Made by a program: the position numbers and the translations under genes. A DNA stretch of 64,000 bases from Candidatus Dormiibacterota bacterium (lineage in GTDB: Bacteria; Chloroflexota; Dormibacteria; Aeolococcales; Aeolococcaceae): contig CAVPXI010000007.1 in the NCBI GenBank assembly GCA_963709585.1, forward strand, positions 288,001 through 352,000. Direction: 5' to 3'. Each line of letters opens with the position of its first letter. Position 1 is the first letter of the stretch. The notes under the pieces are model-generated. The model saw only the letters and a program-made list of their open reading frames with translations. It was not told the origin of the DNA and made no database searches. Shown piece by piece: positions 5,032 through 58,963 of this stretch.

Positions 5032-6017
5032 CTAGCCCTCGATGTTGACCAGGAAGCCGTGGAAGGAAGCGATGGGGCTTTCGACGTACAAACCCACCAC
5101 GACGTCACCGTTTGGGCTGATGTTCTTAATGAACGTTCCGTCGCCGGCCCTGTGCCGGCATGCGGGTCGTCAAGGGGCGAGAACTGCCAGTCGCGCAACA
5201 GCCATCCATGCGTAGCGCCGCCGCCGTTGATAATGGTGCCGTCGATACTTCCGCGGTGCGAGATCGCGCTCGGCGTCGTGCCCTGTCCGGCGCCGCTGCC
5301 AGCTCCCGGAGCGTTGATGGTCGTGAAGTTCCCCGACGTGTCAACGAAGCCATGGCTGACGTTGTGATTGTCGATGTACTCTCCGACGACTACTCCGGCG
5401 TCGTTCTCACTGGTCAGGATCGTGCCCTGGCCGGCGCTGACGCCGGCGTGAGGCGCATTCACCGTAGTGAAGACGCCAGCGTTGTCCACGAACCCGTGGT
5501 TGACGTTGTTGCTGTCGAGATACTGGCCGACAACCACACCCTTGTCGTTGAGACCCTCTGGAATCGTGCCGGCGCCGCCGGAGCCCACCTTCGGGTCGTT
5601 GATGACGCTGAAGGCGCCTCGAGGCCCTCGCACGAAACCGTGCCAGATCCCGGTGTCATCGATGTATGCGCCGGCGACAGTGTTCGTGTTGTTGATGCCG
5701 GATGGGAACGTGACCCCGGACGTCCCCGGGTAGTCGAACTGGACGACACGCCCTCCGGATATGACGTAGCCGTGATAGCCACCCCCGGCGTCCAGATACG
5801 TACCCGTCATGACCCCGGCGTCATTGACACCGTTGACGTAGCTGCCGAACTTTCCGACGTTGACAGTGAGGTAATGCAGCGACCTATGTGCTGCCTGGGC
5901 CTGCAACGATGACGAGGCCGTGAGGGCGACTCCAGCACTCGCTGTCGCTGCCGCTACGACAAACGTCTTCCGTTTGCGGTTGATGACATCAGTCTGACCG
6001 AGCATGACCACACCCAC
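5032..6017 (-). CDS. Secreted HAF-like extracellular repeat protein; apparent -1 frameshift near 5145-5150
   Basis: Signal peptide; repeats 'GINDxGxVVGxYxDxxxxxHGF'. The last repeat (GDGTFIKNISPNGDVVVGLY...HGFLVNIEG*) continues in another frame to the stop at 5032. Confidence 0.75.
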
Positions 6018-19050: not shown

Positions 19051-19650
19051 AACTGACCAGCCTTCCTCCTAACGCGCCTGACAGCCGTTTCGGTGTCGCC
19101 TCAACACTCCTTTTGGCCCGCCAGCGGACGGGGCGCACGGATGCGTCAATCTGAGACCGGATTGTGTGGATTCTTGTGGGCTTCTGTCAACGGCAACCCT
19201 GCCAAGCCCTGCCCTTAGGTAGGTTATGTGGGTTTGGATCCAGGAAACCATGAAAGACCGACCTCCAAGGCACCAATTTCCGTGGTATTGTACCCGGCCA
19301 TGCGTGGGTTACGCATTGTTAGGGGCCAACCCCAAGGCAGTTTGCAGGTCCCCGCCCGACGGGCTGCGGAGGTTTCCGAATTGCGTCCCAGCACACTGGC
19401 ACGGATTCACGTATGCCCGGGTCGGTCCTTCCTAGTCGCTACAGAACCGGCGTGGAGCGCTCGCTGCGGGGGACTCGGCGAGGCTCGGACTGAGTCCGCG
19501 CCGGGGCATGCTCAAACGCCGGCGGTCCGTCGAGGCCACGAGCGCTTATCGAAGCCTGTTTGCTCGAGAAGAGCAGCGAGCATCCGGTATAGCGAAGAAC
19601 GCAGGAAGGCCCTTGGAAACGCACCCTTTCGCGTGGCGTTTAGGTAGCGG

Positions 19651-27904: not shown

Positions 27905-28509
27905 CTATGGCTGCGTTGACCCGCGGAAGTGACCCTGCTTTACGACCAGCTCATAAGCGGGACCGCCACCAACGACGTCGACGAAGATTTCCTCACTCAG
28001 CGCCGCAAGGACGTCGCTCGGTTCTGTCACACCATCGCGGCAGAAGTTCAGACACGTGTGGGTTCCACCGCCAAGCTTCAGCCGATGGATGCCAAGTGCG
28101 CGACCACGGTCTCGTCGGCGCCCAGCCCGATTGGGCGGCCTGCCTTCCAGAAGCCCGAGCCCACCTCCATACACAGAGGCTCGTGGTCGGCTTCGCCGAA
28201 GAACGGGGGCCACAGGACTCCTCCACAGATCGACGCGTCCTCGTTTCGCCTCGAGCGCGGCTCAGAAACCACGGCCGCCATCGCCAACACCGGCTCCGCA
28301 ACCGCCACTTCAATGGCGGCTGTTGCTGCGCCGGACCCGCCCCTGGCGAACTGCACGTAGCGATCGCTGCGAGCAGCGTCATTGAAGATCACGAATGCGT
28401 CGTGTGTTCCCCGCAGCCAGAACAGAGCCAATGTCATTCGTTTGATCCGCCAAGCGGAACGGTCGGTCTGTTTAGGGACCCCTGCCTCCCACCAAGCCTG
28501 TTCGCCCAT
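27905..28509 (-). CDS. T3SS-chaperone-like (TY-Chap-like) hypothetical protein; apparent -1 frameshift near 28080
   Basis: AFVIFND..SDRYVQFA, LCMEVGSGFW. Continues in another frame as LKLGGG...NFCRD...LAALSEEIFVDVVG. Confidence 0.5.
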
Positions 28510-29155
28510 CCGCACGCTCCGTCGTCTGGGGCGATATCCCGCGCTTACCGCCGCATGGTGGCGGTCAGGTCTTCTCCGCGGGGGCACCGTGCGTGGGTGG
28601 CGCGGTTGCCGAGGCGGCAGCCGGGAGGCTTATGCCGTCTTCTCGTGACCCTTCTACAAGCGTACACGCGCGGGCGACACCTGCCTGTCGTCAGTGCGAC
28701 GCCCCGGGGATTCTCAGACCCTGGCCGGCAACCGACCGTCGCGATGTTTGCGCTACGTCAGCTCCGCTACGAGACGCGCGTAGTCCTGCGGCGTGCTCGC
28801 ATACAAGGCGATCTCGAAGTCCGGCGGTGACTGGTACGCAGCGAGGATTGCGGACCCACATCCCGAAGCGGAGGTGACCACCGCTCACTCCTGCTCGGAA
28901 CCACGGTGGCGCCGTCGACGGAGCCACCGAACCCGCCCCCCCCAACGGCCGCGTCGAGTAGCGGCTGATGCCAGATTACCCGACCTATTCACGCCCCATT
29001 GATGGAAGCCGATTCGATCCTATTTCGATTGCGCTAATTGATCATCGCGGTTGGTCATCAACGGCTATTTCCCGCAGTGCCGACACCCCGGGCGCAAGAG
29101 TAAAAGCCTCAGTCCGAGGTCGCCTGAATAGCGTAAGCGCGGTTTGGTGTCTATT

Positions 29156-29779
29156 TTAAGCTGTGATCGTCGTCGGATCTAATTTTGTGCGAGGAGGCGA
29201 ATCCTCAAGCGCTAGGCTGTTGATGAACGTACAAAGTCTGGTCGCTTCGTCTTTCTGCAGATCTACTGGCAACAGTATCTCTGCAACGATCCCCTGCCTA
29301 ACCGGAAACGGGTATCTGATCATGCGGCTGCTGGTAGATGTTCCAATGGCTTCCGTATCTAACGTAGACGCTCCTTGCGCGCGTGTCCGAGGGACGCGTG
29401 AACGGGCTGAGGTAGCACGTTCACCCGTTTTAGACCTTTCTCGAAGCTGCGGTCGGTAATTCCTTGGATCGTCCAAATACGACAAGTACAAACTAAGCGC
29501 TCGAAGGAACCGCGACCGATACGCGGCGAGGCTACCCGGAGCGAATTCCTTCTTCGCAAGGTTTTCAAAACGATCAAGAAGTGAATCAATATCGATAGAT
29601 CGTACGTTTATGGATTCCCAGTCTTGACCTTCAACTGATAGAACGCGCTGGACTGCCGCTCGTAAAGCATTCGCGGTATTCCGATTCAACAGGCCCTTTT
29701 CGGCCGCCCAATTCCAATGGTCTACGAAGTCGCGACCAGTCCCGTCTTCAGAACCATGGTCCACTACCACTTTCACCAC
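29156..29779 (-). CDS. Hypothetical protein: integrase core-binding (SAM-like) N-domain, linker, small C-domain; no catalytic domain
   Basis: KGLLNRNTA..LRAAV.RVL, IDIDSLLDRFEN, APGSLAAYRSRF, C-terminal YPFPVR..LPVDL..EA.RL. AT-richer than flanks. Confidence 0.75.
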   Translation of the reverse strand: MVKVVVDHGSEDGTGRDFVDHWNWAAEKGLLNRNTANALRAAVQRVLSVEGQDWESINVRSIDIDSLLDRFENLAKKEFAPGSLAAYRSRFLRALSLYLSYLDDPRNYRPQLRERSKTGERATSARSRVPRTRAQGASTLDTEAIGTSTSSRMIRYPFPVRQGIVAEILLPVDLQKDEATRLCTFINSLALEDSPPRTKLDPTTITA

Positions 29780-29963
29780 ATCCAGTTCGATAACATTATT
29801 AGCTGAATCTGATATTAGAACAATATCGTCAAAAAATCAAGAACCCACACTTGTGACGAAAGCTGCGTAGCCTGCTCGGCAATCTGAACTAAGGGTATGG
29901 CAATACCGGTCACGGCTACGGCCCTTCCGTCCGCTTCTATCTCGTCGCATCAAGGCAGGTTGA

Positions 29964-29992
29964 TTGTATGAGCTATCCAGCTTTGCTATACT
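29964..29992 (+). promoter_or_regulatory. Sigma70-type promoter of the tRNA-like gene
   Basis: TTGTAT-17 bp-TATACT with extended TGn; ends 7 bp before the cloverleaf. Confidence 0.7.
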
Positions 29993-29999
29993 GGAAGGA

Positions 30000-30075
30000 G
30001 CCGGTGTAGCCCAATTGGTAGAGGCAGGTGCCTGCCAAGCACCCACAGGTGAGGGTCCGAGTCCCTTCGCCGGCA
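30000..30075 (+). tRNA. Non-canonical tRNA / tRNA-like RNA: anticodon GCC (Gly) on a Leu-like body
   Basis: Acceptor GCCGGTG/CGCCGGC + A73; D-arm GCC-CAATTGGTAGA-GGC; anticodon arm GGTGC-CTGCCAA-GCACC; 7-nt variable region; T-arm GAGGG-TCCGAGT-CCCTT. Confidence 0.8.
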
Positions 30076-30087
30076 CCTGGGGTACAC

Positions 30088-30117
30088 ATAGGGCCGGGGC
30101 ATGAGCCCCGGCCCTAT
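30088..30117 (+). terminator. Perfect 13-bp hairpin after the tRNA-like gene
   Basis: ATAGGGCCGGGGC-ATGA-GCCCCGGCCCTAT; no strong U-tract. Confidence 0.7.
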
Positions 30118-30889
30118 TCGAAGCGACTGGCTTCGCAAGTGCCTGCCAAGCCTTCCGAGAGTACCACTTGCCAGCTTGGGATAATCGTCTCGATAGTGAG
30201 TGCCGACGGGTCAGGCCCTATCGTCTCTCGACCGCGTTCGCGTTCTAAATCAAGGCTCCGATCCTCGCGATTCTGCATTCGAGAACATGGAACTCTCTTC
30301 CCTCGCTCATCACCATCGCCTAGCGCGGTGACTCGAAACGGCTCAGCTTCTACCCCGTTCTGGACTCTAATCGTGGCTCATTCCTCGAGCCGGTGATACT
30401 CGGAGCATGGATGCCCTCGGATCTCAGTGCTGTGGGCTACTGAACCTCTGGTACTTCGGCGGAATCCGACGCAGTGCTCGGCAGGAAGTGGTTCTTGACA
30501 ACTCCGGCCCCGACGTCCTCTGCCTCCCCGAGGTCGATCCCAAGATATCGAGCGCTTCACCGAGGCTTCAGGTTTCTCCTGGTCGCGATGCAGCTTCGGC
30601 GCCAATCTCTCGGGCAGGTCGTTGGCTGTCGCGATCCTTGGGAGCTCACGCCTGACTCCACGAGCTGCGGCCAGCCCTCCGCAGGACGCCCGCCACACTA
30701 CGGCGACGTTCGTGCTCGGCTAGGGCGTGCATCCGAAACTCGTCTAAGAAGTGCTTTGGACACGCCACCGTGGCGACTACCCTCGACGTATAGCCGCGCC
30801 ACGCCGGCCATGCACCGCGAGGCCGGCGAGCACCCGCGACACGATGCTCCGCAAGGTGCCTGGATGACCCTGGATCGCCGAGACGAGAG

Positions 30890-31228: not shown

Positions 31229-34200
31229 TCACGCCGCCCCTCGTCGGGTCGACGACGGGCACGCGCGCCAATAGGCGCACCCCCAACAGGGCGCCTCAGG
31301 CGGCGCCGCTCGCTCCGCACTCACCAAAGTCGTTAGCAGCTCTTCAACTCCGACCCAGCTATCGTCACCACCGCGATGCACCGCGCCGGTCCGCATCTCC
31401 ATAAGCATCGCCCCCGCGTCGAGACCCAACGCTTCCCGTGTCGCACGCTTGTAGATGGCGAGCTGACGTCCGTACACGGTCAGCGCCTCGGCGCCAAGCG
31501 AGCGGTTTGTTTTGTAGTCGACGACCCAGGCCCGACCTTCGGCGTCGTTGCACAAACGATCGATGAATCCGCGCACCAAAACGGGCCGACCGCCCACATC
31601 GACCGCGAGGTTGACCTCTTGCTCCGTTGCGATGGTCCGCATTCCCGCGACCTCAGTACCGAGGTAGCGCTCGAGCATTCGCTCTGCAGTCGCAGACCAC
31701 ACGGTTACGGCACGCTCGGCTCCGACACTCAGGGTCGCGAGCTCGTTCCAAAGTTCGCACAGGCGCGGGAGGCCGCCAATACCATCTTCGGGCCCGGGCT
31801 GGCGGAACCGTTCGAGGACAGCATGCACGAGGGTACCGAGATCAGCCGCACCGATTGAACTCGCGATCGCAGGCTCGCTCTTGGGCGAGAGGTCATCCGG
31901 AGGCGCCGGCAGGCGCCATTCGAACATATATCTGTAGCGCAATCCGCACTGCGCAAGGACTTCGAGTTGGGAGAAGGACACTACCAACCGTTCCGTCGGT
32001 TCGGCCCCTCGGTCGCGCGCCAGGGCGCCGGCACCTTGCGGTAGAGGAATCGCGGCCAACTCCCCCGCGTTCACGGTGGGCGCAACCGTTGCTGGACTCA
32101 CTGCACTCGCGGCTTCCGTATCCATCAGGGTTCCGCATCCACCATCGCGCATGAAGAGCGCAAGGGTACGGAAGTGGTCGTCGGCCGGATCCCGCCGCGC
32201 CCGGCCGTTCCCGTCCAACTCAGAGAAGACCGACTCCCAGTCCGGCTCTTTCTTTCGTGTCGCCGACACGAACAATTGCCGCTCCGCTCGAGTGATCGCG
32301 ACGTACACAAGTCGGCGCAACTCGGCTCGGTCCACATCCTTCGGGAGCTCGCCCGCTCTCGCGGCGAGAAAATGGCCGTGCTTCAGTGTCGGATTCCTCG
32401 TGTCACCGAGATCCTTGATGATCAGCCCCATCTCATCGTCGAAGAAGAGCCAACCCCTGTGCTGGATGGTCGGAGGCTTGACGTGCGCCAGGAACACGAC
32501 GGGAAACTCAAGCCCCTTTGCCGCATGTACGGTCATGAAGCGCACAGCATCAGATCCGGAGACATCCGCTTCGGGGACGTCGATCTCGTGTTCGTCGTGC
32601 AGGTTGACGTAGCGGATGAACTCATCTAGGCCAGTGAACGCCTGTGACGCCTCGAAGTCGCCGGCCATCCGATAGAGCTTGCGTAGGTTGCCGACCCTTC
32701 GCGGCGCCTCCGCCGCCTCGCTCCCGGCAAGCGCGGCATATCCTGTCTCATCCAGTACCGCCTGCACCAAATCGCCGACCGACACTCCGGCCCGTCGCGA
32801 TGCTAAGCCTCGAACTAGGTCCAGCGCGGTTGTCACGCGCTCGGCGGTGCCGGCGTCACCCAGCTCCGTGAACCCTCCTTTCTCCGCCCGGATGACCCGA
32901 TCCCACCTGTAACGCAGCTCCAGTTCGTCACCCTCTGCACTGCGAAGGAGACGGTGCAACTGCCCGTCGCTCACCCGAGCCAACGGACCCTGAAGGACGC
33001 GAACCAGCGCCATGTCGTTGAGCGGGTTGTCGACCAAGGCCAGATAGGCCATCACGTCCTTGATCTCCTCGCGATCGAAGAACCCCTGACCGCCCGAGGT
33101 GACGTAGGGAACCCCGTGCTTGCGCAGCTCCTGCTCAAACGCGATGGGGGGTCGCGCCATGCGAGTGAGGAGTGCGATCTCTTGCCAGCGTGTGCCCTCA
33201 CCGTGCACGCGCAGAATCTGTCCCGCCACGAACCGCGCCTCGTCCTCGGGAGTGTCGGCGCGGTAGAGGGATACAGACCGCACATCGCCGCCGCCAGCAT
33301 CGGCCACCAGGTCGGGCTCATTCGCAAACTGACCGTCCTTCCGGATCAGATTTGTCGCCACATCCAGGATCGGTTGTGCCGATCGGTAGTTCGTCAGCAA
33401 GAGCCGCTCATCGCCGGGGAAGTCGAGAAGGTTGCGGATCTGTGCGTCGCGCCACCCATAGATGCTCTGCTTGGGATCGCCGACGACGGAGACATTTGCA
33501 AATCCGTCCTGCGCGAGCAGCTCGAGGACGTCGCGCTGGATCCGGCTTGTGTCCTGGAACTCGTCCACGATGATGTACTGGAACCGCTCGCGGACACGGT
33601 GCCGCCACGCAGCGTTGTCTCGCAGCGCATCACGGAGACGCAGCAGGATACCGTCGAAGTCGAGCATCCTCCACGCGGCGAGCCGCCGCTCGTATTCGTG
33701 GTAGGTCGCGCAGATGAGGCGCGCCACTTCCTCCTCCGCGAGCCGTTCGTTCCCCTCATCCGGTAGGACATCGACGCCGGCCGTGTCGTGCCAGTACACC
33801 TCAGCGCAGGTTGTGCACTGAGTGGCAAGGGTATCGGGTGCGATCCCCCGCCCTTTCATGCGCTGGATGAAGCCGAACGCCTCCGACGACACCTTCATCG
33901 CTACTTCGGTGCTGAGGACACGCAGGTCGAGGATCCCGGCCTCGGGAATCTCCCCGTTGCGCAGCGATGTGAGCACCTGGTCCACGAGGAGACGCTCTTC
34001 CAGCGGGTCGATGACCCTCGTATCCCGGTCGAAACCAATCTCGTAGCAGTCATCGCGCAGCAGGCGCACGCAGAGTCCGTGAAAGGTACCAACCCAAGCT
34101 GCGTCCATCGACGCACGATCCGCAACGAGGCCACCTGCAACCAGCCGATCGGTCACTCGACCGCGCAGGTCCGCCGCTGCCCGGTTGGTGAAAGTCACAG

Positions 34201-34360
34201 CAACGATGCGGCTGGGATCGAGGCCCCGCTCCGAGACCAGATACGCGAAGCGCTCCACCATCGTGAGCGTCTTGCCCGTGCCGGCTCCCGCGACAATCTT
34301 CTCCGCCTGAGTCGGGTCTGCTGTTGCCGCGGCCCGCTGCAGGTCGTTGATTTCAGTCAT
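31229..34360 (-). CDS. UvrD/REP helicase + RecB-like PD-(D/E)XK nuclease (AdnB/AddA-like)
   Basis: AGAGTGKT, VDEFQD, VGDPKQSIYGWR, NYRS, TVHAAKGLEF, YVAITRA; C-terminal RGFIDRL, VVDYKT, QLAIY, CxxCxxxxxC. Confidence 0.92.
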   Translation of the reverse strand: MTEINDLQRAAATADPTQAEKIVAGAGTGKTLTMVERFAYLVSERGLDPSRIVAVTFTNRAAADLRGRVTDRLVAGGLVADRASMDAAWVGTFHGLCVRLLRDDCYEIGFDRDTRVIDPLEERLLVDQVLTSLRNGEIPEAGILDLRVLSTEVAMKVSSEAFGFIQRMKGRGIAPDTLATQCTTCAEVYWHDTAGVDVLPDEGNERLAEEEVARLICATYHEYERRLAAWRMLDFDGILLRLRDALRDNAAWRHRVRERFQYIIVDEFQDTSRIQRDVLELLAQDGFANVSVVGDPKQSIYGWRDAQIRNLLDFPGDERLLLTNYRSAQPILDVATNLIRKDGQFANEPDLVADAGGGDVRSVSLYRADTPEDEARFVAGQILRVHGEGTRWQEIALLTRMARPPIAFEQELRKHGVPYVTSGGQGFFDREEIKDVMAYLALVDNPLNDMALVRVLQGPLARVSDGQLHRLLRSAEGDELELRYRWDRVIRAEKGGFTELGDAGTAERVTTALDLVRGLASRRAGVSVGDLVQAVLDETGYAALAGSEAAEAPRRVGNLRKLYRMAGDFEASQAFTGLDEFIRYVNLHDEHEIDVPEADVSGSDAVRFMTVHAAKGLEFPVVFLAHVKPPTIQHRGWLFFDDEMGLIIKDLGDTRNPTLKHGHFLAARAGELPKDVDRAELRRLVYVAITRAERQLFVSATRKKEPDWESVFSELDGNGRARRDPADDHFRTLALFMRDGGCGTLMDTEAASAVSPATVAPTVNAGELAAIPLPQGAGALARDRGAEPTERLVVSFSQLEVLAQCGLRYRYMFEWRLPAPPDDLSPKSEPAIASSIGAADLGTLVHAVLERFRQPGPEDGIGGLPRLCELWNELATLSVGAERAVTVWSATAERMLERYLGTEVAGMRTIATEQEVNLAVDVGGRPVLVRGFIDRLCNDAEGRAWVVDYKTNRSLGAEALTVYGRQLAIYKRATREALGLDAGAMLMEMRTGAVHRGGDDSWVGVEELLTTLVSAERAAPPEAPCWGCAYWRACPSSTRRGAA

Positions 34361-37300
34361 TCGGCCTCGTACGCCTCAGGTTCCTCGATGCGTCCAGGAC
34401 ATACCCAGGCGTAGTCGCACCCTTTGCCCCAAGCTGCGAGGCACGTATACCCGTCGTGGCGAGGGCGCGGCGCGAAATCTCCCGCGTGGATCTCTTCCAG
34501 CGTCGTGAGGATCCTCCCGCGGGCTTCTTCAAGCTGATCGTCGTTCAAATGGAGCGGCCCATTCTTGGGCGTCTCACCGTCGTCGGCAATGATCCGCGTC
34601 TTGCGGATCTGACCCCCCTTCATCAGGTTCGACGGATACCAGAGTCCGACGACATGGGGATCGACGGCGGGCACACCATCCACTTGACCGTCGCGGGAGC
34701 CGAAGAAGTAGATCAGCAACTGGAAGTCATGGGGGACGTCGCTCGTGATGCCGAGGTCGTCGCCCAGTTCACCGGTAGTCTTGCCGTTCTTGCCCGTCTT
34801 GTAGTCGATGATCTCGTGGCCACCTTCGTCAAGGACGATGATCCGGTCGATGTAGCCGCGGATCGTGACGTCTCGCAGCGGATGCCAGGTGATTCGTGCC
34901 TCGGTGGCCGCCGTGAGCGGCAACTCCTGCCCGTCAATTTCTGACCTGTAATAGTTGGCGAAGAGGCGGCGGAGCGAGCCCTTTTCGACACGGCGATCGA
35001 GCTCTCCGTCGACGGTGCGGAGGTGTGCCTCGATCGCCGCGTCACAGCACTCGGCATAGAACGTTTCGGCAAGCGCGGCGTCGTGGCGCCACCGCCGTTC
35101 GTTCTCCGGAGCGTGGAATCGCTCGGGCGCCGCGTGAAATGCGCTGCCTCGAGCCGCCGCGACCCCGGACTCGGTGCGCAGTCCGAGTGTCTTGCTGTAG
35201 TAGTACTGGCGAGGACAGGCGAGGAACTTGCTGACGCTCGATGAGCTGTCGTACAACTCACTGGTGAAGACGACCGGCTCTGACCACGCTTCCCAGCCGC
35301 TGAAGGCCGCTACATCGCGCTCGTCCTGCGCGTTGCGGCCGCTGCCAAGTGCCGGGTCGCGCTGTAGCTCTGTGTACTCGCCAAGTGGAGCGTCGCCCGC
35401 TAGTGGCTCTAGGAATGCGCTTGGCGCTCCGATCTCTTCCTTCTCATAAGTATCCGCCCACGACAGAAAGAGCATGTCTTGGGCTCGCGTGGACGCAACG
35501 TATCCGAGGCGCGCCTCTTCGCGCAGGAACTCCTCGTCGGTGGCGGGCCACGGAGGTGCGAAATCCACGAGCGTCTTCTCTAGCCACTGCTGCTCGTGCT
35601 TCTCCAGGAGTGGGGTCCGGGCGCGAGCCACGACGGGAAAGTGCTGCGATGCCATCGTCGGCATGAACACGACAGGAAACTCGAGTCCTTTACTGGCGTG
35701 AGCGGTGAGGATGCGAACGACACCCTGCTCGGGCTGGTCGGCAGCCGTAAGCTCGTCGATGTACTCGGGAAGGAGTTGCTCGAGGGCGGTGACGGTCTCG
35801 GCGAGTGAGGGTGGATGCTCGCTGAGCAGCGTCTGAAACTCGACGTAGTCGCCCACTGCTCGCAGCAACATCCGAAGCGGTACAAGGAGCTCGTCGCGCC
35901 GTGAGTCGGACGTAGCCGGTGACATCAGCAGGCGCACCACGCCGAGTTCGTCGAGGACCCTCTGCAGCAGTACATTGATGGCGACCTGACCGGCGCTCGA
36001 CCGCAATCGTGCCCATCGCCAAGTAAACCCATGGATGGCGTCGCGTCCATCGTCGCTCAGGAGATCGAAGAACCCTGCGGTTCGGCGCTTGGTTTCGTTC
36101 GGCTCGCGGGAACTCCACTCGAGGGCGTCGGCCGCGGCTCTCTCCCGCTCGAGGTCAGTGCGGTCCTCTGGAGAGAGCGGCGGTTCCGTGTTGCTCCACG
36201 GCAGCGGCCAGCGACTGGGATCTGCATCGCGGAGGAGGAAGCAGGTGTGCTTCAAGACTGTCAAGAGTGACGTGGTGCGCAGCGCTTCCGTCGCCGCACG
36301 CTGGCGGCGCTGCGCCTCCGCGAGCAGCCGGTGAGCGTCGGCAGCCGGAACACCAGCAAAGGGCGACTCCACCACGCGCATCAGGAAAGTGTCGTCATCG
36401 GGATGAGCGAGCGCGCCTAGGGCGTGCACCGCGAATCGAATAACGTCGGACGACGCGAAGTTGGGAGACGCGCCCACCTCGTGCGGGATACCAGCAGCAC
36501 GGAGCGCTTCTTCGAACTGACGGCCATGGCGGCGAACGCTGCGCAGGACGATGGCAATGTCACCGGCAGCGTAGCGCGGGCCGGGGGCGTGGCCGCTGGC
36601 AATGAGCTCCGCGATCTGGCGGACTACCGCCGTGGCCTCGTCGGTCGCATTCTGCTCGTGCTCGCGATGCAGCACCGGAACATCGGCATTGCCGCGGTTT
36701 GGGGTGAGCCCTGCGGCGCTAAGTCCATAGCGGTCGAGGAGACGATCCGAAGCCCGGAGAATGGAACCGTACGATCGGTAGTTCTGGCGCAGCTCCACAC
36801 GCGTGCCACCGAACTGCCACTTCTCATCAAGGAAGGCAGGCAGCGTCCCCCGGAACGAGTAGATGGCCTGGTTCGGATCACCCACCCACAGCAAGTCTGG
36901 GGTGCGGGTGATGGTGCTCCACCAACTGCGCGATGAGTTTGACCTGAGCGGCGTCCACGTCCTGATACTCGTCGACGATGACGTGCTGGAACTTCATCGA
37001 CAGCTCCTCTCGCAGTGCGTCGTCCCGCTCCAGATGGAGCTGACACTGGGCGATGACATCGCGAAAGTCCCAGAGGTGGCGGCTGTCCTGTTCGGCCCAG
37101 TACGCCCTGTAGATTGCGGCCAGATCCCGCATCTTCGCGTTGTTGGTAACGCGGGAGTACCCACCGAAGTCATCCGACCGAACAAGATTCTGCTTGAGAA
37201 CGCCGATGAACCAAAGGGCGTCCTGAACAAGTGCTTCGCTCGTCTGCAGCGGGCCAAGGATCTCAAGACCGCTCATCTGCGTAAGCACCCGGCGCATCAG

Positions 37301-37666
37301 CACCTTCTCCTCGAAACTGTTCATAAGGCGGAAGGGGACGATCCCGTGGAGGTAGCCGTGGGTGGTGAGGATACGGGTGGCGAAGGAGTGGAATGTGCTG
37401 ACCCACGACTCGTCATATGAGGTGTTGTGTAGGCCATCGATACGGCGCTTAAGATCGCTGGCCGCGTTATTGGCGAACGTCAATAGGAGGACTTGGCTCG
37501 GGCGCAGTCCGACCTCGTCGAGCAGGCGCAGATACATGGCTACAACCGTGGTCGTCTTCCCAGTTCCAGGCCCAGCGACTAGGCGGAGCGGCCCCTCGCC
37601 CATAAGGTTGAGGGCGGTCCGCTGCTCCGCGTTGAGATGTAGCCGGTCGGCTACAGGAACCGTCAT
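34357..37666 (-). CDS. UvrD/REP helicase + RecB-like nuclease (AdnA-like); +1 frameshift in the C run at 36885-36887
   Basis: AGPGTGKT, VDEYQD, (AV)VGDPNQAIYSFRG, NYRS, TAHASKGLEF, YVASTRA, CPRQY, RGYIDRI, IIDYKTG, QLLIY. Stop overlaps the next start (ATGA). Confidence 0.88.
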
Positions 37667-38436
37667 GTCCAGATTGTGGACGCCGGGCAGTGACGACGCC
37701 GTATCGAACCCATGAAGCCTCTGGGCACGGCCTTCAAGCCAGCACTTTCGACCGCGGCCGGGGATGGCCCACGCGGCATCGATCGACGCCACGCTGCCGC
37801 TTCATCTTCAGATCTGGGAACGTGTTGACATCCGTAAGCTAGGAGTCCGGCCAGACCCGCGTGTGTGCCGTCCCCTGAGCTTTACGTAGGTGCAGCGAGA
37901 GTGATCGATCGCTGCTATCAGCAACGCACGCATCTAGCGCGCGCGGCGGGCGGCGGCGACGGGTGTCCAGGGCGGTCTTGCTTCGTAAGGTCGATGCGCG
38001 CGCCTTGACATCACGGAACTAATTGCTACTGCCAAATCATCCAACGTCTTATAAGTCCCACATTTCAGCGCTGTCAAATTCACAAGCACCGGCTGATTCC
38101 ACAGGTCACGCTTTGGCCATCGACTGATCACGAGGTGATGAGCGAGTAGATCCTGCGCCAGATGGCGTGGCTCCTTCGACCGCAAGAGTTCTCGGCCGGT
38201 GGATCTGAAGGAAAGGGCATGAACGCTCCCGATGCGGTCGCAACGAGTCGACCAAACGGTGTCTTAGTCACCAAGAAGATGGTCTCTCTTCGAGATCGCC
38301 CGGCGCCTGGAGGCGGGCGACGTGCCTACACCCACCGGCCGAGCGAGATGGTTCCCGAGCTCCGTTGGCAAATTGCCAAGGCAGGCACACGATGATCACC
38401 CAAAACGAAGTTGACACGCGCGCTCCGCGCACGCGC

Positions 38437-41194
38437 TCACTCGATGCTCACCGCCTCGGCGAGCCCGAGTTCCTGCAGGATCTGACGCACCTCCGACACC
38501 AAACTCTCGCTGGCAGCAGCGTTGACCGTAACGGAGAATTCCACCCCAACTTTGAGATCAGAGCCGGATCGCAGCTTAGGAAGGATTTTCGTGCCGAGGC
38601 GGTTCCACATCTCCGGGGGAATCGTGCCAACGAGCCGGAAGCTCTTGGTCTGCTCGCCAGGGACCGGCTCAAATCCTGGTAGGGGGCCGGGGTCGCCGGC
38701 AGGTTCAGGACTTGGCTCGGCAGTGGGAGCAGACTCCGGCACGAAAACGCCACCCGCTTTTATTGCTTCTGCCGCCTCCCGTCGAAGTAGAAACACATCG
38801 GCGTCGAAGGCGACCTCGTCGGCCGGGAGGATCTCGTTGAACCACACGCGCTCGTAGCTACCGTCTGGCGTCTTGCCGGAGGCAAAGCCAAAGTCGCCAT
38901 GCTCGACGAAGTCGGTTATCTTGCCCCGAAGAGTTGTGTCGGGGTCGACCAGTCGTGTCAGTGAGCCGTTGAGAAAGCTCTGACGCAAGCTAGCAACAGG
39001 CCACGCCCCGGACGTCTTCAGCGCGGGTGGCCAGTTGCGCTCGATGTACCCTGCGCCGACCGATTCGTTGAGAAGCGCTCCCGACCGTAGCGCATCGATC
39101 ACCCGGCCGCAGAGCGTTCCTCCACTCGATGAATGGCCGGCACCCAAATCAATCACTTTGAGGCCATCAGGCTCTTGGCTATCCGCGACGACAGCGAATC
39201 GATAATCACCCCAGACCTCGTCCTTCGCGACCCCTTCCGCGTCCTTCACCTTCGTCTGCAGTTCGGCACGGTCGCTCTTCTCGAACTCGCCGCCTAGCGT
39301 ACCCTCGGTAACCTCGCGCGCCACCCGCCTCCACGCCAGCATCAGTTCAATCTTGTCGCGCAGTTCGCGGCCGGGCTTCTTGAGGCACCAGACAAGCGCA
39401 CCGGGGTAAAGGCGCGGAGATTTACCGCGCTGACGGGTCCACTCTGACAACTGTTCGCGTAGTGTCTCGCCGCCTGGCCACTCCATCTCAGGATCGGCCA
39501 CGACGAGCGTAAGCCTGGGAGTGTCCGGAATCTCCGTGGCTTCACTCGGGAATGGGATAACCGGGATGCTCGCCCCGCGCCGGAATTCCTCCTCGACGAG
39601 CTTCCGAACGCTTGGCTTCACCTCCGTCGCATCGTCGAGCGAGGCGCGCCGGTCGCTAACGACCTTCTTCATTGTTGGCTGATAGCCGATTCGAAATCCA
39701 TCCGAACCCGCCTTCCGAATGAAGTACGAGCGGTCCTCGAGCGCGAACGCGGCGTTGTCGATGGTCGTCGTGTCCAGCTCCGGCTCGCCGAGTGCGAACC
39801 GCAGCTCCGGGAGGTGCGCCACCTTGTCCGTCTGCCCGCCCGACGAACTCGAAAAGGATTGCGGTGCCAACGCGACGATGGATATCCCGCAAGGGGCCAC
39901 TGGTGTCGGCGTCGAGTGCTCTACTGTGCGCCTGCTCGCCGGCGATGTCCGTGTCGATCGCCGCGACAAGCCTGGACTCGCCGAGCTGTCCCAGCACCAC
40001 GCTGCGGAACCCGGGCTCCGCGAGCGGTGCCGAGCCGAGGGTGATGAGCGGCTCGTTGCGCGCCTTGGTGAATGCATCCTGGGCAGCGATCGAAATCCAC
40101 TGGGCGAGCATCGCCAGCGTGCCCCGCGTCTGCTGATATTGAGGAAGCGCCTGCCACTTGCGCTGGAAGACCGATAGTGTCGCCGGATGAAATGGGTAGC
40201 AAGCTTCGAACCGCCCCTGCAGGAACTCGCGCGCCTTCGCCTCTGTCGCTGCCGAGTCAACCGCGGTCCATTCAGGCGGTAGCTGCGCGCGACGCTCGAA
40301 ACACCAGTCTCCGAATGCCCTGGCGACGTTCCTCCGGATCTTCTCGCTTCCGATGTCCTGGAAGAGCCGACGCCGCACGACCTCGCTGATCTCTGTTTCA
40401 TCGTTCACGATCAGATCCTTGGCCACCCGACGGACCACCTTCGAGATTCGCTCCTGCCATTCCTGATCCCAGTCGGTCAACTCGACCTGGCTTCGCGGCA
40501 GGCTGATCACGCACGCGCCGTGTGAAGTACCGGTCGTGGCCACGGTCAGGTTTTGGATGAAAGAGAGGAACGACTCGGCACTACCGCGGTGGCGGTTCAG
40601 GTAATTGAGGACCTCGTCAAAGAGCAGCAGGACTGGAGCTCCGGCAGCCTGAAACACCTGCGCTATCGCATCGGTGCCAGGGGCGGTGGTCTTCGCTGCC
40701 GCGCCGAGCGCCTCGACGCCCTTGTCGCCTGCTAGCTGGCGGGCAACGTCGATCCAGGGCGTTTCGCGCCCGTCTTGCGGGTCCCAGGCATTGCCCACGA
40801 ACACCGCGACCTTCGCCCGAGGAATGGACGCGACGCCAGATTCACTTACTAGATCCGCGACCCCGTCGTAGCGGCGGGCTGCGTCTCCGTTCGTCGCAAG
40901 GTGGTATAGCGTGGTCAGCGTGTGAGTTTTGCCGCCGCCGAATTGGGTGATCAGAGTCAACACTGGCGAGGTGTTCTCGGTCTTGCCCGATAGACGGCGT
41001 AGCACCATGCCGGAGTGCTCACGTAGCGCCCGCGTGAAGCACGTGCGAGCGAAGAACTGCGCAGGATCGCGGTAGTCCTGCGGCGCTGTTCCGGCGACGA
41101 CCTGCTCGAGGGCAATGGCGAACTCATCCGGGTTGAAGGATCGACCTTCGCGAACCTCCCTGCGAGGGGTCGCTACCTTGTACCACGGTTCCAT
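38437..41194 (-). CDS. DUF499-family AAA+ ATPase; +1 frameshift at 39846-39847
   Basis: MEPWYKVATPRREV..G.SF.PDEFA, Y.DP.QFF, TQFGGGKTH, LLFDE, YPFHP, QQTRGTL. Corrected junction TAILFESSGGQ. Confidence 0.9.
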
Positions 41195-41203
41195 TCCAAC
41201 CTC

Positions 41204-42179
41204 CTAAGGCCTCTTCATACGAGCGAACAAGCTCGATAGCCGGTTCCTTCAGACGCACAAGGTTTGCATACGCGAGCGGCTCGAAACCGCGATCCGCCGC
41301 ATACATCCGGTAACGAACGCCGTCGGTGACAATGACGTCGCGGACAACGCCGAGCATCGCTACATACCCTTTGGCTTGTTCGAGCGCCCCTTCCACCCCG
41401 GCCCCCAGACGCTTTGCTTCGATCACAAGGTGGCAATTCTCCGGGGAACGTGGCAATGCGCTGAATACTGCCACGTCGATGTGTCTCCATTGCACCGCGA
41501 TGTTCTCCGGCGGCCAGCCGAAAGCGCGTAGAGCCGGCACGACGAAATGGGCGATCAGTTCGTCTTCGCTCGGTTGATCACCGAACCGTTGGCGGTCTTG
41601 GAGAAGGGGAACGAGGTCTGCTGCTTGAGCGACGATCCCTTGCAACATACTCGGGACCTCGTCGAGGAGCGCCTGTTCGACGGGGACGTCGGGAAGAGCT
41701 CCCATCTGCCACTGCGTCGGCGGAGACTTGACAAACCGCTGGGCGAAGTCAACGGCTTCGCTGTTCCATACCCGCGCGCATCGCGTCGGATTGGCTCCGA
41801 AGACAGGTCCAGAAAATATGTAATCCGTGGGCAGGTGATACCACCGTACGCGCCGAGCATGCTGAAGATCCCATCCGTTCACATCGTCGAAGGCATTGTG
41901 GTACTTATACTCGCTCGCCACAATGCCGACCGCCCCTATGGTCGCCTGGCCGGTTCGGAGCAGGAATATGTTCCCCGCTTGGACCTCACTCGCGAAGCGC
42001 CGCACGAATCCACCTTCGAACTCTTCGTCGTCGCGGTCCGGCGACCACGGACCAGCATCTCCTGGGCCAACGAGAGCGACCCCGTACCGGAGGAAGACAT
42101 CGGCATACGAGCGCGAAATCGGACCGCCCGATATCTGCCACACGCTTTGCGATGGATCGCTTGCCTGAGTTGCGGTCAT
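41204..42179 (-). CDS. PD-(D/E)XK nuclease (HsdR_N-like) with a putative PUA/EVE-like N-terminal domain
   Basis: SEDELIAHFVVP.L..FGW, IDVAVF, LVIEAK, ALEQAKGY, IVTDG. Removing one base at 41229-41230 gives LFARMKRP* just before the RBS of the next gene. Confidence 0.75.
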
Positions 42180-45100
42180 CGGGGCAAGGCGAGCAGCATT
42201 GCGTCGAGCAGGCGCTTCTCTTCACTAGTCTTTGGATAGAGTGCGGAGAGTGCGTTGGCGAGACGCATAAAATCGGAACCACGTTCCTGCTCCGCTTTCA
42301 GCAGCGCGCGCAGCGCGTTCGAGCGGCCGCCGGCTTGGAGCAGCATCGCTGCATGGACGCGGTCGAGCGTGGTTGCGTCCAGAGCGCCCGCCAAACGGTC
42401 ATCCGAAACGTCGACGTCAGCACGCTTACCGCTGACACGCCCGCGTCCGCGCACCGTCGGGGCCGCATTACTATCAGGAAAGAGCAGACCCTGTAGCGGG
42501 TTGCCACCGAGCGTCGCCTCGTGCTCAAGCCGCGTGGCAACGGCATGCGCACCATCGTCGCCGAAGAGTTGTTTGGCCCGCTCGCCGATTGGGAGCAGCC
42601 TCACAACGCCCTGCTTCGTTTCTATCACCCGACCTTCCCACTTAGGCAGATCAATGCCGAGCGGCTGCGCGAACCGGCGGACGACGTCAAAGACGAGCGT
42701 GAATCCTTTGACTTTGCTGGCCGACGCATCCTCATCATCCTCATCGGACGACGCCTCGGCCTGATCGTCGTCGCTCGTCCCGTTGACTGTCTCGCTGTTC
42801 GTGCTCTGAAGTGTCCAGAGAAAGAGCGCCGTGAGCCGCGCGTCCTCCTCTACGGCACCGGCAGCTCCATTGCGCGCCTTCGCCTCGGCAGTGCCGAGCA
42901 CTTGCTCGAGAGCGCTCCTCCCGACTACTTCCCAGACCTTCTCCAGATATTCGGCCAGATCCACCTCACGGCCTTCGGCCGTTTCAACCCTGGCGTGACG
43001 ACTGAAGATCTCTAAGGCAGGGCCTATGCATGCAAACACGAGATCAGCGCCCCGCACGCCTTCGTGCTGCAAACGCTCCATCCAGTTTCCGACGCGCTTT
43101 GGAAGCTCTCGGAGGATGTCGGCCCAGTCACCTATGACCGCATCGTCGGGACGAGGACGGCAAACGAGGTGAACGCTGGTAGCGAGCGCCGCCGAGTTTT
43201 GAGCCCTCAGTCTACCGGGCCTTTCCGTCGCAATTGGCCACGACGCAGTGATCGTCCACCCGCCGCGGATCATTCCTGACAGGAGCGCCTCCCACCCTTC
43301 CGTGGTTTTATGCGCAAAGACAACGGCACCGATTCCGTCGTCCCGTAAAACACGCCGACCTTCCGCGAATGCCCGCCGAACCCCATCCTCGAAAAAGGCT
43401 TGGTCCTTTTGCGGGTACCGTTCGGGATCCCAGTGTGCCATTTCGCACAGCTCGCGGTCTTTTGGAGTAAGCGGGTTCGTCGGATCGAGGCGGTCTCGAA
43501 GAAGGGGATTTTCGGGCATGAGCCGCTTGAGCCAGACGAAGAAGTAATCCGATAAGTCAGCATACGGAACCGCAAAGTAGTACGGCGGGTCGGTAAACCA
43601 AACGGCCGCCGCCTCGTCGGGAAGCGGATGCTCAGCAGCGTCAGCGGATTCGACAGTCCCAGCTGCAGAACCGGGCCATGCCTCGATAACCCGAGCAACC
43701 CAGTCGATGGCCCCGTCAAGGTTGCCCGACGAATCAGTCCACGGACTTGCCTCAGCAAAGTCCCACACCATAGGTAGCGCCTGTCGTCCAAAGGTGTGTG
43801 CGACGAACTCACCAGTTTGCGCCCATACAACGCCCGAGCTCCCGTAGTCAGCCGCGCGGCCGACGACCATCGCCATCGCGTCTCGGAGTGCTCCGTCTTC
43901 TATTGCCGGCCGCTGGCGCGCGATGCGTACAAGAGTTACCATCGCGAGCTTCTGCCTAGCCGAGAACATGTCTCCCCAGCGGCGCACCCCATAGAGCGGC
44001 ACATTAAACGTGCCGCTCATGAGTGGCAGGATCTCGTCCGGGACGGGGCTTAGCCCTTGCTTTCCACCATCCTCCCATTCACGAAGGACCGCGGAGAGCA
44101 TGACCTGCGACCTTCGGACCGCCTCGTAGTCCGCGGTCGTCGCAATTCGATAGCTGCATCCGCGTTCTCCGGGACGCCGCGTCACCACCGCGATAATCCG
44201 CGCTCCGCCTGATCGTTTCGATCCCACGCCATCGAACACGACGTCGGCACCCCCGTTCTGGGCGATGAGTTGGACGCGGACTCGCTCCGGTGCAAGCACA
44301 GCTCCGCACGTAGGGCACATTGCTTTCGCACGCGTTGTTGTACCGGACGGCACGTCCTTGTTCGATGTCGGCTCGAACACTTCCAGTTCAAGACGCGGCG
44401 TTCCCGTCGAAGGCCGTACGACGTCGTATCGTAGAGCTCGCTTGCGACCGGCTTTCGTACAAAGCCAGAAAGAGCGGACGAGCGGTATCTCGGTGCCGCA
44501 ATTCGGGGACTCGCATCTCACGGTTCGCGCCCACAAATATGCCGTGGGTCTCCGGCCGTCGGGATCATTCGGGTAAAGGTCAGCTAGCGCAGTCTCCGCC
44601 TCAGCCCTAATCTCGGCCCCTACTCGCCGCAGATCCTGCGCAAGCGTGACACCGTGCCGCGGAATGTCTTGCAGCATGACCTTCAAGATCAGGCAAGCGA
44701 CGGGATTCAGATCGCTCGCGAACGCGTCGCAACCAAGGCGAAGGGCCTCCAGTGGAATGGACCCGCCGCCAGCAAACGGATCGGCGATCAAGGGCGGCTC
44801 CTGTCCGTGTGCCGCCCTCACCAGCGCTCGGCTCACCTGCAGATACCTGCTGTTTGCGGCAAGATCCCAGTCCGCGAAATCACCAATGAACTTCAGCAAA
44901 GCTTTCCGTAAGTCCTCGTCGCGCGTCCCAGGGTTGTAGCCGACTTCTTCGCGCAACAACTTACGGGCTTGTTCTTTGAATTCCGGTGGGCACAGCGCAT
45001 CGCACGGATCGGGCCAAAGCAATGCGAGGAGAACAGCTCGAACTCGAAGCGAGCGGACGCCTGGCCCACCATATGTGCAATGTGCTCGGGTGTCCGTGAC

Positions 45101-45188
45101 GGATCGACTTCTCAGTCGCTGCGTGTCGCGAGACCTCGGCGATCGGAAAGTCGACCTCGGCTAGGCGCTTGCAATCTTTGGGGATCAC
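42176..45188 (-). CDS. DUF1156-domain adenine-specific DNA methyltransferase with Zn ribbon; +1 frameshift at 45041-45042
   Basis: [64 protein letters not shown]. Confidence 0.92.
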
Positions 45189-48100: not shown

Positions 48101-48620
48101 ACTTTTCTTTGAGTTCGCGCTGCCATTGGAAAGCGAGATTTGCAGGGCAGACGATCAGGATGCGTTCGGCGAGTCCCCGCAGCTCAAGCTCGCGAATCAG
48201 GAGCCCCGACATAATCGTTTTGCCGGCGCCCGCGTCGTCGGCAAGGAGAAAGCGCACCCGCGGCAGCTTGAGCAGGTAGTCGTAGATCGCCTCGAGCTGG
48301 TGCGGCAGTGGGTCGACACGAGAGATTGACAGCCCGAAGTAGGGGTCGAACTCGTACGCGATGCCGAGCGCGTACGCCTGAAGGCCCAAACGGAGAAGAC
48401 GGCCATCGCCGGCGTATGAGTGCTGCGAATCAAGGATCGTCAGGCTGGCCAGATCCTCAGCAGTTAGGGTGACCCTACGGAACCGCTCCGACCGTGTTCC
48501 CGCCAACCCGACTACCCAGCTCGAAGCGCTATTCGCCTCTACGGTTTCAACGCGCATTGGCTCGTTGAATAACGCGCCAGTCAGAATCTGGCCCGTCTCG
48601 ATCGTGCTGGAGCCGGTCAC
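45185..48620 (-). CDS. SNF2-family helicase with C-terminal DUF3883 (NOV-C) nuclease-like domain; +1 frameshift at 47199-47200
   Basis: [60 protein letters not shown]; C-terminal GYDVTS..LIEVKG..LTPNE. Confidence 0.92.
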
Positions 48621-58734: not shown

Positions 58735-58888
58735 GGTGGAAGCCCTTCACGCAGATATTTGTGGATTTATCGTCGTCGACTGAGCCGAAAAATCAATGCT
58801 CAGGAGCGACTAATCGGGTGATGTTTTGGGGACTTATCCACAGGTCGAAATCACCCGAAAAGGCCCGAATCGAATTCAAAATTCGGCT

Positions 58889-58963
58889 TGGCTGGGGAGG
58901 GAGGATTCGAACCTCCGATTGGCTGATCCAGAATCAGCTGCCTTACCACTTGGCCACTCCCCA
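58889..58963 (-). tRNA. tRNA-Gln (CTG)
   Basis: TGGGGAG/CTCCCCA-G-CCA acceptor; GCTGA-TTCTGGA-TCAGC anticodon arm; GGAGG-TTCGAAT-CCTCC T-arm. Confidence 0.97.

Follow-up and report, generated by a model that had tools for sequence, protein, structure and literature searches.

A leucine-like tRNA gene with a changing, duplicated anticodon arm beside a core-binding-only integrase-like protein in a Dormibacteria genome

We analyzed a stretch of 64,000 nucleotides (nt) from a Candidatus Dormiibacterota bacterium (GenBank assembly GCA_963709585.1, contig CAVPXI010000007.1, positions 288,001 to 352,000), hereafter the window, which contains a tRNA gene (30000-30075, + strand) divergently paired with a gene for a 207-residue protein (29156-29779, - strand). 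The original prediction described the pair as an RNA-protein module made of a tRNA with a Leu-like body and a Gly anticodon, facing a non-catalytic integrase-like protein. This interpretation was partly supported, and the module proved stranger than described. The same tRNA scaffold stands beside related proteins elsewhere with other anticodons, and the anticodon arm is copied downstream of the tRNA together with its lineage-specific changes. The linkage between tRNA and protein is real, exceeds chance, and is reproducible in three independent loci. The module is best filed as a new combination of known kinds, namely element-borne tRNAs at attachment (att) sites and dual-identity tRNAs.

ARAGORN predicted a tRNA-Gly(gcc) at 30000-30077, one of two tRNAs in the window, and the Rfam tRNA model (RF00005) matched 30000-30075 across its full length (model positions 1-71) at 50.2 bits against a gathering score of 29. 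By sequence and Rfam alignment, the acceptor stem carries G1-C72, C2-G71, C3-G70 and U6.G67, and the discriminator is A73. The D-stem has three pairs and a C13/A22 mismatch, the variable region is CACAGGT (7 nt), and the T-loop TCCGAGT places a C at position 55. The predicted cloverleaf was thus confirmed, along with the peculiarities first listed for it: the GCC anticodon, A73, C3-G70, the 3-bp D-stem, the 7-nt variable region and the TCC of the T-loop. The 3' end reads ACC followed by T, so CCA is incompletely encoded.

To place this tRNA among those of its host, tRNAs were scanned across the whole genome of the window (3.52 Mb in 24 contigs, 88.8% complete). Three canonical Gly tRNAs (GCC, CCC and UCC) were found, with a common GCGGGAG acceptor and U73. 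Because the genome keeps all three, the window tRNA is an extra, fourth and unrelated tRNA, with a GCC anticodon. Its DNA was matched in no genome but its own in a search of 41 relatives, of which 24 belong to the same genus, and a 32-nt scaffold pattern was present in 1 of 401 genomes of the phylum. The gene is therefore accessory.

The tRNA body is Leu-like rather than Gly-like when compared by segment. The segment spanning the T-arm, the acceptor 3' strand and A73 was best matched by the genome's own tRNA-Leu(GAG), tRNA-Leu(CAG) and tRNA-Leu(CAA) (18, 16 and 16 of 25 positions), as the proposal of a Leu-like body had anticipated. Gly tRNAs were outside the best segment matches, while in a control they matched one another at 21 of 25-27 positions. 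In a class-wide BLAST search with the window tRNA, the commonest match was 29 nt of the genus's tRNA-Leu(GAG). The identity set of tRNA-Gly in E. coli comprises U73, G1-C72, C2-G71, G3-C70, C35 and C36. Of these the window tRNA has G1-C72, C2-G71, C35 and C36, and it lacks U73, G3-C70 and likeness to its own genome's Gly tRNAs. The suggestion that it is not a normal Gly isotype was borne out, the canonical GCGGGAG...U73 tRNAs being absent from its best matches.

A Leu-type D-arm and T-arm, A73 and a short variable loop are features of type I tRNA-Leu, and the window tRNA has all of them. Related families have a type I tRNA(UAA) of 75-76 nt whose D-arm columns are invariant with its own, so the likeness to short-arm tRNA-Leu(UAA) that had been suggested for the D-arm was right in substance. 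The anticodon is where the likeness to Leu fails, being GCC in the window and GUG or ACC in the two relatives described below. The type I tRNA(UAA), with A73 and a short variable loop (L074 1494-1569; L075 1495-1569), is a conserved single-copy core gene in 127 of 374 genomes of the class, reaching 106 of 159 in one family and 1 of 41 in the window's own genus (tallies that include unpublished genomes). All five Leu tRNAs of the window genome are type II, at 83-87 nt, and the tRNA-Leu(UAA) of the genus is an 87-nt type II tRNA. The family of the 207-residue protein stood beside a type I tRNA(UAA) or a similar tRNA in 0 of 39 loci.

We examined 59 loci encoding homologs of the protein, 8 from genomes and 51 from metagenomes, and scanned all of them for tRNAs. 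L013 (58% identity) and L016 (56%), the closest metagenomic relatives for which upstream sequence is available, each carry a divergent tRNA approximately 200-210 nt from the family gene, as in the window. ARAGORN called these tRNA-His(gtg) in L013 and tRNA-Gly(acc) in L016. Alignment showed that the three tRNAs are one scaffold, with the acceptor, D-arm, 5' strand of the anticodon stem and T-arm in common and with anticodon loops reading CTGCCAA (window), CTGTGAA (L013) and TTACCAA (L016). The L013 tRNA cannot be a normal His tRNA because it lacks G-1 and has A73. ACC is an unusual anticodon in bacteria and is not normal for Gly. Since L013 and L016 both have a normal T-loop (TTCAAAT) and a 5-nt variable loop, C55 and the 7-nt variable loop are private to the window copy. 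The relatives have blemishes of their own, a U50/U64 mismatch in L013 and two broken anticodon-stem pairs in L016. Rfam scores of the scaffold tRNAs were 50.2 bits in the window, 53.4 in L013 and 41.4 in L016, as compared with 55-68 for host tRNAs in the same loci.

The tRNA is nonetheless the best-conserved stretch of the three independent loci, at 81-84% identity versus roughly 68-70% for the DNA of the protein gene, and the spacers are unalignable. Of seven stem changes between the scaffold tRNAs, four keep pairing when read by eye from the sequences. The original prediction had proposed that homologs would have a divergent tRNA within about 300 bp and that its anticodon might vary. This was found in two of five distinct close-clade loci, with GCC, ACC and GUG as the anticodons, but most homologs lack such a tRNA. 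Partners in most of the other loci are Gp49/HigB and helix-turn-helix (HTH) gene pairs, NYN nucleases, host tRNA att sites or integrases. Loci L015 (1612-2910) and L016 (336-765) have in common the family gene and both flanking genes, for a membrane protein and an asparagine synthase, and L015 carries Gp49 plus HTH in the slot where L016 carries the scaffold tRNA and the downstream copy of its anticodon arm. Two degenerate (IUPAC) patterns of the scaffold gave no match in viral contigs, blastn gave none in phages or plasmids, and a class-wide search for the scaffold returned ordinary tRNAs and the type I tRNA(UAA) only.

That downstream copy, or twin, was revealed by a direct-repeat search. 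Copy 1 (30024-30040, + strand) lies within the tRNA and runs from the end of the D-stem through position 26 and the 5' strand of the anticodon stem to 2 nt past the anticodon loop. Copy 2 (30135-30151, + strand) is a 17-nt twin that matches at 16 of 17 positions, 111 nt downstream of copy 1, and a 13-mer of the copies occurs exactly twice in the window. The twin begins 55-69 nt past the tRNA 3' end across loci. In L016 it is identical at 18 of 18 positions and extends into the D-arm, giving a 31-nt alignment whose score was reached by 0 of 500 shuffles. The contig of L013 ends 12 nt into the twin. Two loop substitutions separate the window from L016 (C32T and G34A), and each is present in both copies of its locus. 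In both loci, identity between the copies stops 2 nt after the loop. Copy 2 also forms the outer edge of the conserved block, as alignable similarity between loci ends there. Alignments seeking the tRNA 3' half after copy 2 or the 5' part before it were no better than shuffles (155, 486 and 70 of 500 reached the score), and no third copy was found near the 3' end of the protein gene at up to 2 mismatches of the 13-mer. Our literature searches did not bring up an anticodon arm mirrored in this way on a scaffold whose anticodon changes. The copied arm suggests a role of the anticodon in DNA recombination or control instead of normal decoding.

Signals around the tRNA are consistent with a gene that has its own promoter. 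Reading the divergent spacer (29780-29999) from sequence, we found an extended -10 element (TATACT at 29987-29992 with TG at 29984-29985) ending 7 nt ahead of the first tRNA nucleotide. A -10-like hexamer 6-8 nt before the corresponding position was read by eye in all three loci. The near-consensus promoter that had been proposed therefore stood for its -10 part, but not for its -35, which is poor: TTGATT lies 21 nt away and TTGTAT, matching at 3 of 6 positions, lies at 17 nt. A consensus promoter scanner that requires a -35 called no site upstream of the tRNA. The perfect 13-bp hairpin described downstream proved correct, with arms at 30088-30100 and 30105-30117 that are 100% complementary over 13 nt, a 4-nt loop and no T-run. 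A GC-rich hairpin occupies the same position 3' of the tRNA in L013 and L016. A terminator scan gave no site, and no minus-strand promoter able to give antisense RNA across copy 2 reached the scanner threshold. The module sits, as had been noted, in an AT-richer block (GC 0.49-0.54 over 29000-30250 versus 0.60-0.68 on either side). A search of sequencing runs returned no RNA run with the window stretch and five soil runs with small shares of it. No joints were seen in contigs from the soil runs, which are short, low-depth pieces without coverage of 29256-29996.

The 207-residue protein combines an integrase-type core-binding domain, a linker and a small C-terminal domain. A word-indexed search found 56 homologs besides the protein itself (57 at E ≤ 0.001), and a profile search found 2362 clusters at E ≤ 0.001, nearly all of 185-210 residues and aligned end to end. 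In the AlphaFold2 model, which has a predicted local distance difference test score (pLDDT) of 79.5, residues ~13-106 form a four-helix (SAM-like) integrase core-binding domain, residues ~110-150 a disordered linker, and residues 153-189 a beta-hairpin and helix domain with the motif YPFPVR...LP.DL..DEA.RL. When the model was compared with 48,161 chains using VIA-align, N-terminal core-binding domains of tyrosine recombinases filled nearly all of the first 20 rows at Z scores of 8.9 to 5.6, values that are middling by the tool's own note, although the rows are consistent. The top matches were 3nrw (Z 8.9, root-mean-square deviation 2.7, 89 residues aligned), the IntI structure 2a3v (Z 8.2), and 1a0p and 1z1b (both Z 7.3), with XerA, XerD and the core-binding domain of lambda Int among the rows at Z 7.3. 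The fold match spans residues ~10-103. Two non-catalytic regulators with an integrase fold were also among the first 20 rows.

Other searches with the protein were largely silent. Foldseek returned nothing at E ≤ 0.001 with the model, and neither Pfam, NCBIfam nor PADLOC matched the protein, whereas phrog_2602, of unknown function, matched at E 1.2e-10. The catalytic domain (R-K-H-R-H/W-Y) is absent: the chain ends after the 37-residue beta-hairpin and helix domain, and there is no PF00589 match. The description of the protein as integrase core-binding-like and non-catalytic accordingly held, both in the VIA-align rows and in a model without a catalytic domain. Folded alone (pLDDT 84), the C-terminal domain had a best match of Z 3.0 and none at Z ≥ 5. 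A split or partitioned integrase gene of the SSV type was considered and ruled out by the family's own conserved C-terminal domain and stop codon. No publication on core-binding domains that stand alone, as in this family, turned up in a single full-text literature search, although one search can argue only weakly for absence. Separately, the immunity region of the Shiga toxin (Stx)-converting lambdoid Escherichia phage SH2026Stx1 has an unnamed gene for a family member at 29% identity (L065 3983-4516), located between cI and N.

The neighborhoods of the homologs place the family gene at one edge of very small elements bounded by att-type repeats. Across the 59 loci, a tRNA lies within ~400 nt upstream of the family gene in 10 and downstream in 1. 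Loci L019-L022 have a co-oriented tRNA-Lys(UUU) with a repeat running from the anticodon loop towards the 3' end, in an element of ~1.94 kb. In L038, positions 35-92 of a co-oriented tRNA-Ser(UGA) are repeated exactly (~1.98 kb), and L005 repeats the final 16 nt of its tRNA-Ser(GCU) (~1.8 kb). L008, on a complete Dormibacteria chromosome, has an 18-nt repeat (17 of 18 identical) at a non-tRNA site, with copies at 3740-3757 and 5447-5464 that are 1707 nt apart. This repeat flanks a three-gene cassette encoding the family protein, a Gp49-like protein and an HTH protein, with no tRNA or recombinase inside, and no integrase was found inside any of these 1.7-2-kb elements (L005, L008, L019-L022 and L038). 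In every element with a mapped repeat, the window included, the family gene starts 217-372 nt downstream of a repeat copy. A Gp49/HigB-like open reading frame (ORF) follows the family gene in 11 of 18 scanned downstream ORFs, and an HTH gene comes next in 5 of 5 scanned. NYN nucleases adjoin the family gene in L005 and L018, and the gene immediately upstream encodes a recombinase in three loci (Phage_integrase in L024 and L032, serine recombinase in L036).

We asked where an element containing the window's protein gene might end on its other side. An exact 11-mer of copy 2 (CCTGCCAAGCC) occurs once more at 19198-19208 (+ strand), on the far side of the protein gene, against a chance expectation of 0.07 per window. 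It sits in a 600-nt spacer between genes for a DeoC/LacD aldolase and a PfkB kinase. It is possible, from these 11 nt, that 19198-19208 is the far end of a 10.9-kb element. Both clear copies of the repeat lie on one side of the protein gene, with the single 11-mer on the other. Synteny revealed no empty site, as the region has no counterpart in same-genus genomes: a 7-kb piece of window DNA had only short 72-76% matches, in two of five of them. Among same-genus relatives, an AdnB-like helicase was 32-36% identical, DeoC had no match, and PfkB was 30-32% identical in 5 genomes.

We tentatively favor the reading in which copies 1 and 2 serve a tyrosine-recombinase-style element as core-type sites and the core-binding-only protein reads them, while giving it somewhat less than an even chance. 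It builds on observed features, namely the sequences themselves, the protein fold, the genomic associations and the substitutions mirrored in both copies. The module would be small, accessory and of mobile-element origin, with the protein as its constant part and the tRNA as its variable part. The tRNA would be element-borne, separately transcribed, and descended from the type I tRNA-Leu lineage of the class. Within the two sites, the shared left arm GCA(G/A)GTGC would be followed by the 7-nt anticodon loop as the spacer or overlap, and the right arms would be unrelated. Similarity that ends just past the spacer is how partner sites of tyrosine recombinases look. The protein would recognize both sites through its core-binding domain, as genuine integrases do at core sites, acting as a non-catalytic site-binder (a stabilizer, directionality factor or repressor), and catalysis, if any, would be supplied in trans. 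We infer DNA binding by the protein from its modeled fold, and recombination at the copies and the role of the RNA are likewise inferences.

On this favored reading, the anticodon would evolve as a recombination or operator spacer instead of a codon reader. That would explain why the loop varies on one scaffold, why it misfits the identity of the body, and why the twin tracks it. It would equally explain the identity that ends past the spacer, the blemishes of the tRNAs, the 217-372-nt spacing to att-type repeats, and the recombinases nearby. Anticodons (GCC, ACC and GUG) that misfit the scaffold, on tRNAs each of which is blemished, are expected if decoding is not the main constraint. As the twin and the att-site context had been missed by the original prediction, recombination-type sites deserve at least equal weight with the RNA-centered roles it had proposed.

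Several observations weigh against recombination-type sites. Both clear copies are on the same side of the protein gene, 111 nt apart, which means that they cannot serve as attL and attR for an element with the gene inside. The site at 19198 comprises 11 nt without synteny support, and no integrase lies within 28 kb, the nearest being at 57847-58350 beside a tRNA-Gln. The whole tRNA is conserved, with a -10 and a hairpin in three loci, none of which an att site needs. The left arm of copy 2 reproduces the element's own tRNA, not a host tRNA, and the canonical tRNA-Gly(GCC) shares only 7 nt with it. The mirrored changes come from one informative pair among three loci, and binding of DNA by the protein is deduced from its fold.

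The conservation of the entire tRNA, with its own -10 and hairpin in three loci, would be accounted for if the RNA itself were an effector, charged by leucyl-tRNA synthetase (LeuRS) and reading Gly codons GGC/GGU (His codons in L013) as Leu. In variants of this explanation the RNA mistranslates, either as a toxin or upon induction by stress, or acts as a decoy for an enzyme that targets tRNAs, with the protein repressing it from the shared spacer and the twin serving as a second operator or in RNA-level control. The Leu-like T-arm, acceptor and A73, the D-arm invariant with type I tRNA(UAA), and three non-Leu anticodons on one scaffold all fit this. So does the slot that the tRNA fills, which elsewhere holds RNase-type toxins (Gp49 plus HTH in L015 versus L016; NYN in L005 and L018), and so do a defense-island setting with an Hma system 8 kb away and a homolog in the cI-N immunity region of an Stx phage. 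Precedents exist in tRNAProX mistranslators that are toxic in E. coli (PMC10404621) and in charging of a type I tRNA-Leu by a bacterial LeuRS (PMC6614811). An effector would explain why the tRNA is conserved throughout, why it has expression signals and Leu features, and why it stands in the toxin slot, but it would not by itself explain the twin, which needs extra assumptions given that no minus-strand promoter for an antisense RNA was found. The Leu tRNAs of the genus are also type II (5 of 5 in the window genome, 83-87 nt), type I tRNA(UAA) occurs in 1 of 41 genus members, every scaffold tRNA has structural defects, and there is no dedicated synthetase nearby, unlike with tRNAProX. We consider an effector role rather doubtful on balance, although it is the main competitor of the recombination-site reading and each of the two accommodates most of the observations. 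A bolder version is unlikely: a re-targetable cassette in which a Leu-charged leaderless tRNA, its anticodon swapped between lineages (GCC, ACC, GUG), would mis-decode abundant Gly or His codons, be silenced by the core-binding-only protein, and have its specificity set or sensed by the mirrored arm. The tRNA would then be a mistranslation RNA toxin of a toxin-antitoxin-like or defense module, in the slot of HigB-like or NYN proteins.

Two plainer explanations fare worse. The tRNA could be ordinary cargo whose anticodon shifted to Gly decoding, charged by glycyl-tRNA synthetase (GlyRS) through C35, C36, G1-C72 and C2-G71, all of which are present, with the protein unrelated and the twin left over from a tandem duplication. 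Element-borne tRNAs are common, the copy spacing of 106-121 nt equals one tRNA plus hairpin unit, and the lack of a glyQ match in the genome suggests the dimeric type of GlyRS, which is less strict about position 73. However, a canonical tRNA-Gly(GCC) is already in the genome, the GUG form in L013 is no normal His tRNA without G-1 and with A73, the ACC of L016 is no normal bacterial Gly anticodon, and the linkage with the protein recurs in three loci. A passive leftover would not keep 16/17 to 18/18 identity and mirrored lineage changes amid decayed surroundings. We think cargo quite improbable. It is just as hard to credit that the tRNA is a functionless pseudo-tRNA lying with the att remains of a dead element, the protein gene being the sole live part. 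The low Rfam scores (50.2, 53.4 and 41.4 versus 55-68 bits for host tRNAs), C55, the broken stem pairs, the lack of an integrase nearby, and the absence of the module from the other 40 genomes searched (24 same genus) would suit decay. Yet no other DNA of the three loci is as conserved as the tRNA (81-84% versus ~68-70% for the coding gene), pairing survives 4 of 7 stem changes, and the positions of the -10, hairpin and twin are all retained.

The nearest described system is the tRNA-dependent lysogeny of actinobacteriophages (Guerrero-Bustamante & Hatfull 2024, PMC10865867). There, a phage tRNA gene lies near the attachment site, with an 8-17-bp core over the tRNA anticodon region. A full integrase stands beside attP, integration disrupts a host tRNA, and the phage tRNA is the isoacceptor that replaces it. 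The module resembles this system in having the element's own complete tRNA near an att site, a short core at the anticodon region, and an anticodon that varies between elements. It differs in lacking an adjacent integrase, the nearest PF00589 match being 28 kb off beside another tRNA. The host tRNA-Gly(GCC) on contig C8 is intact and shares 7 nt, the core copying the arm of the element's own tRNA instead. The body and anticodon of the window tRNA also disagree, whereas the phage tRNA is an isoacceptor. Strict tRNA-dependent lysogeny was ruled out, as the left arm of the copy comes from the element's own tRNA and not from a host tRNA.

Dual-identity tRNAs provide the other comparison. Schuntermann et al. 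2023 (PMC10404621) present tRNAProX of Streptomyces and Kitasatospora as a dual-identity, mistranslating tRNA that is toxic in E. coli. The likeness is in the body of one isotype bearing the anticodons of others, an anticodon that varies in the family, and accessory genes. Whereas tRNAProX lies beside a dedicated prolyl-tRNA synthetase isoform, the window tRNA adjoins an integrase-like protein and has its anticodon arm duplicated downstream. Pfam scans of five adjoining ORFs, one of which had helicase and nuclease domains only, and of further window ORFs found no synthetase domain beside the module. A bacterial LeuRS charges a type I tRNA-Leu, according to Fan et al. 2019 (PMC6614811). The window tRNA shares a short variable loop, A73 and invariant D-arm columns with type I tRNA-Leu and the tRNA(UAA) of the class. 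Unlike that tRNA(UAA), which is a core gene with a Leu anticodon, it is accessory and has another acceptor, another anticodon stem and a non-Leu anticodon.

Short elements that are bounded by att-type direct repeats and have no recombinase of their own are known as cis-mobilizable elements (CIMEs) and Xer-exploiting integrative mobile elements (IMEX). The elements in L008, L005, L019-L022 and L038 are similarly short, att-repeat-bounded and integrase-less. CIMEs and IMEX are not defined by a core-binding-only protein, as the L008-type elements are, and mobility of the latter is putative. On the protein side, the family resembles MrpR (8a0a) and SroF (9rd5) of SPbeta-like phages, which by their PDB titles use an integrase-type DNA-binding fold without recombination in the control region of a phage or element. 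In contrast to these proteins of ~320 residues with a catalytic-domain fold, the 207-residue family keeps the N-terminal domain and adds an unrelated beta-hairpin and helix domain.

If the arm and its twin are recombination or operator sites, the window would hold a tRNA gene whose anticodon evolves under DNA-site selection, and a function would be at hand for a large unnamed family (2362 clusters, phrog_2602, no Pfam entry). That family marks very small integrase-less elements bounded by att-type repeats. If LeuRS charges the tRNA instead, it would represent the second family of natural, deliberate mistranslators, and one that is mobile and tied to a DNA-binding controller, which would bear on mistranslation as a weapon or stress response of cells and elements. 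Under either reading, the three loci offer a compact system of ~1 kb that is directly testable.

The surroundings of the module differ between its two sides. To the right, on the minus strand, lies an AdnAB/AddAB-like pair of a UvrD helicase and a PD-(D/E)XK nuclease (31229-37792), with the second subunit split into 34357-36894 and 36878-37792. Beyond it is a PADLOC Hma system (38437-48620, - strand) comprising overlapping HmaC ORFs (38437-40401 and 39656-41194), the HmaB methylase (42176-45022), and HmaA (45185-47392 and 47136-48620). The split Hma ORFs suggest frameshifts or assembly errors. The defense-island label given to the module is fair for this right side, with Hma at 38.4-48.6 kb, but no defense model matched within 22-31 kb. 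The left side has small unknown ORFs and metabolic genes, together with a SAM-IV riboswitch aptamer (28536-28650, - strand; 65.4 bits versus a gathering score of 38). A minus-strand ORF downstream of this riboswitch, within 28078-28587, had no Pfam match.

Two observations concern tRNAs elsewhere in the genome. At least 7 of its 11 integrase-domain matches are within ~1 kb of a tRNA (on contigs C4, C8, C10 and C14, and at 57847-58963 of the window), and the tRNAs involved include the canonical tRNA-Gly(GCC) on C8 and the tRNA-Gln(CTG) in the window. ARAGORN also reported a 70-nt tRNA on contig C6 (54303-54372) with a Lys-like body, a 6-nt anticodon loop and a two-base anticodon, 'tt', explained either by a broken Lys(UUU) gene or by an error in sequencing.

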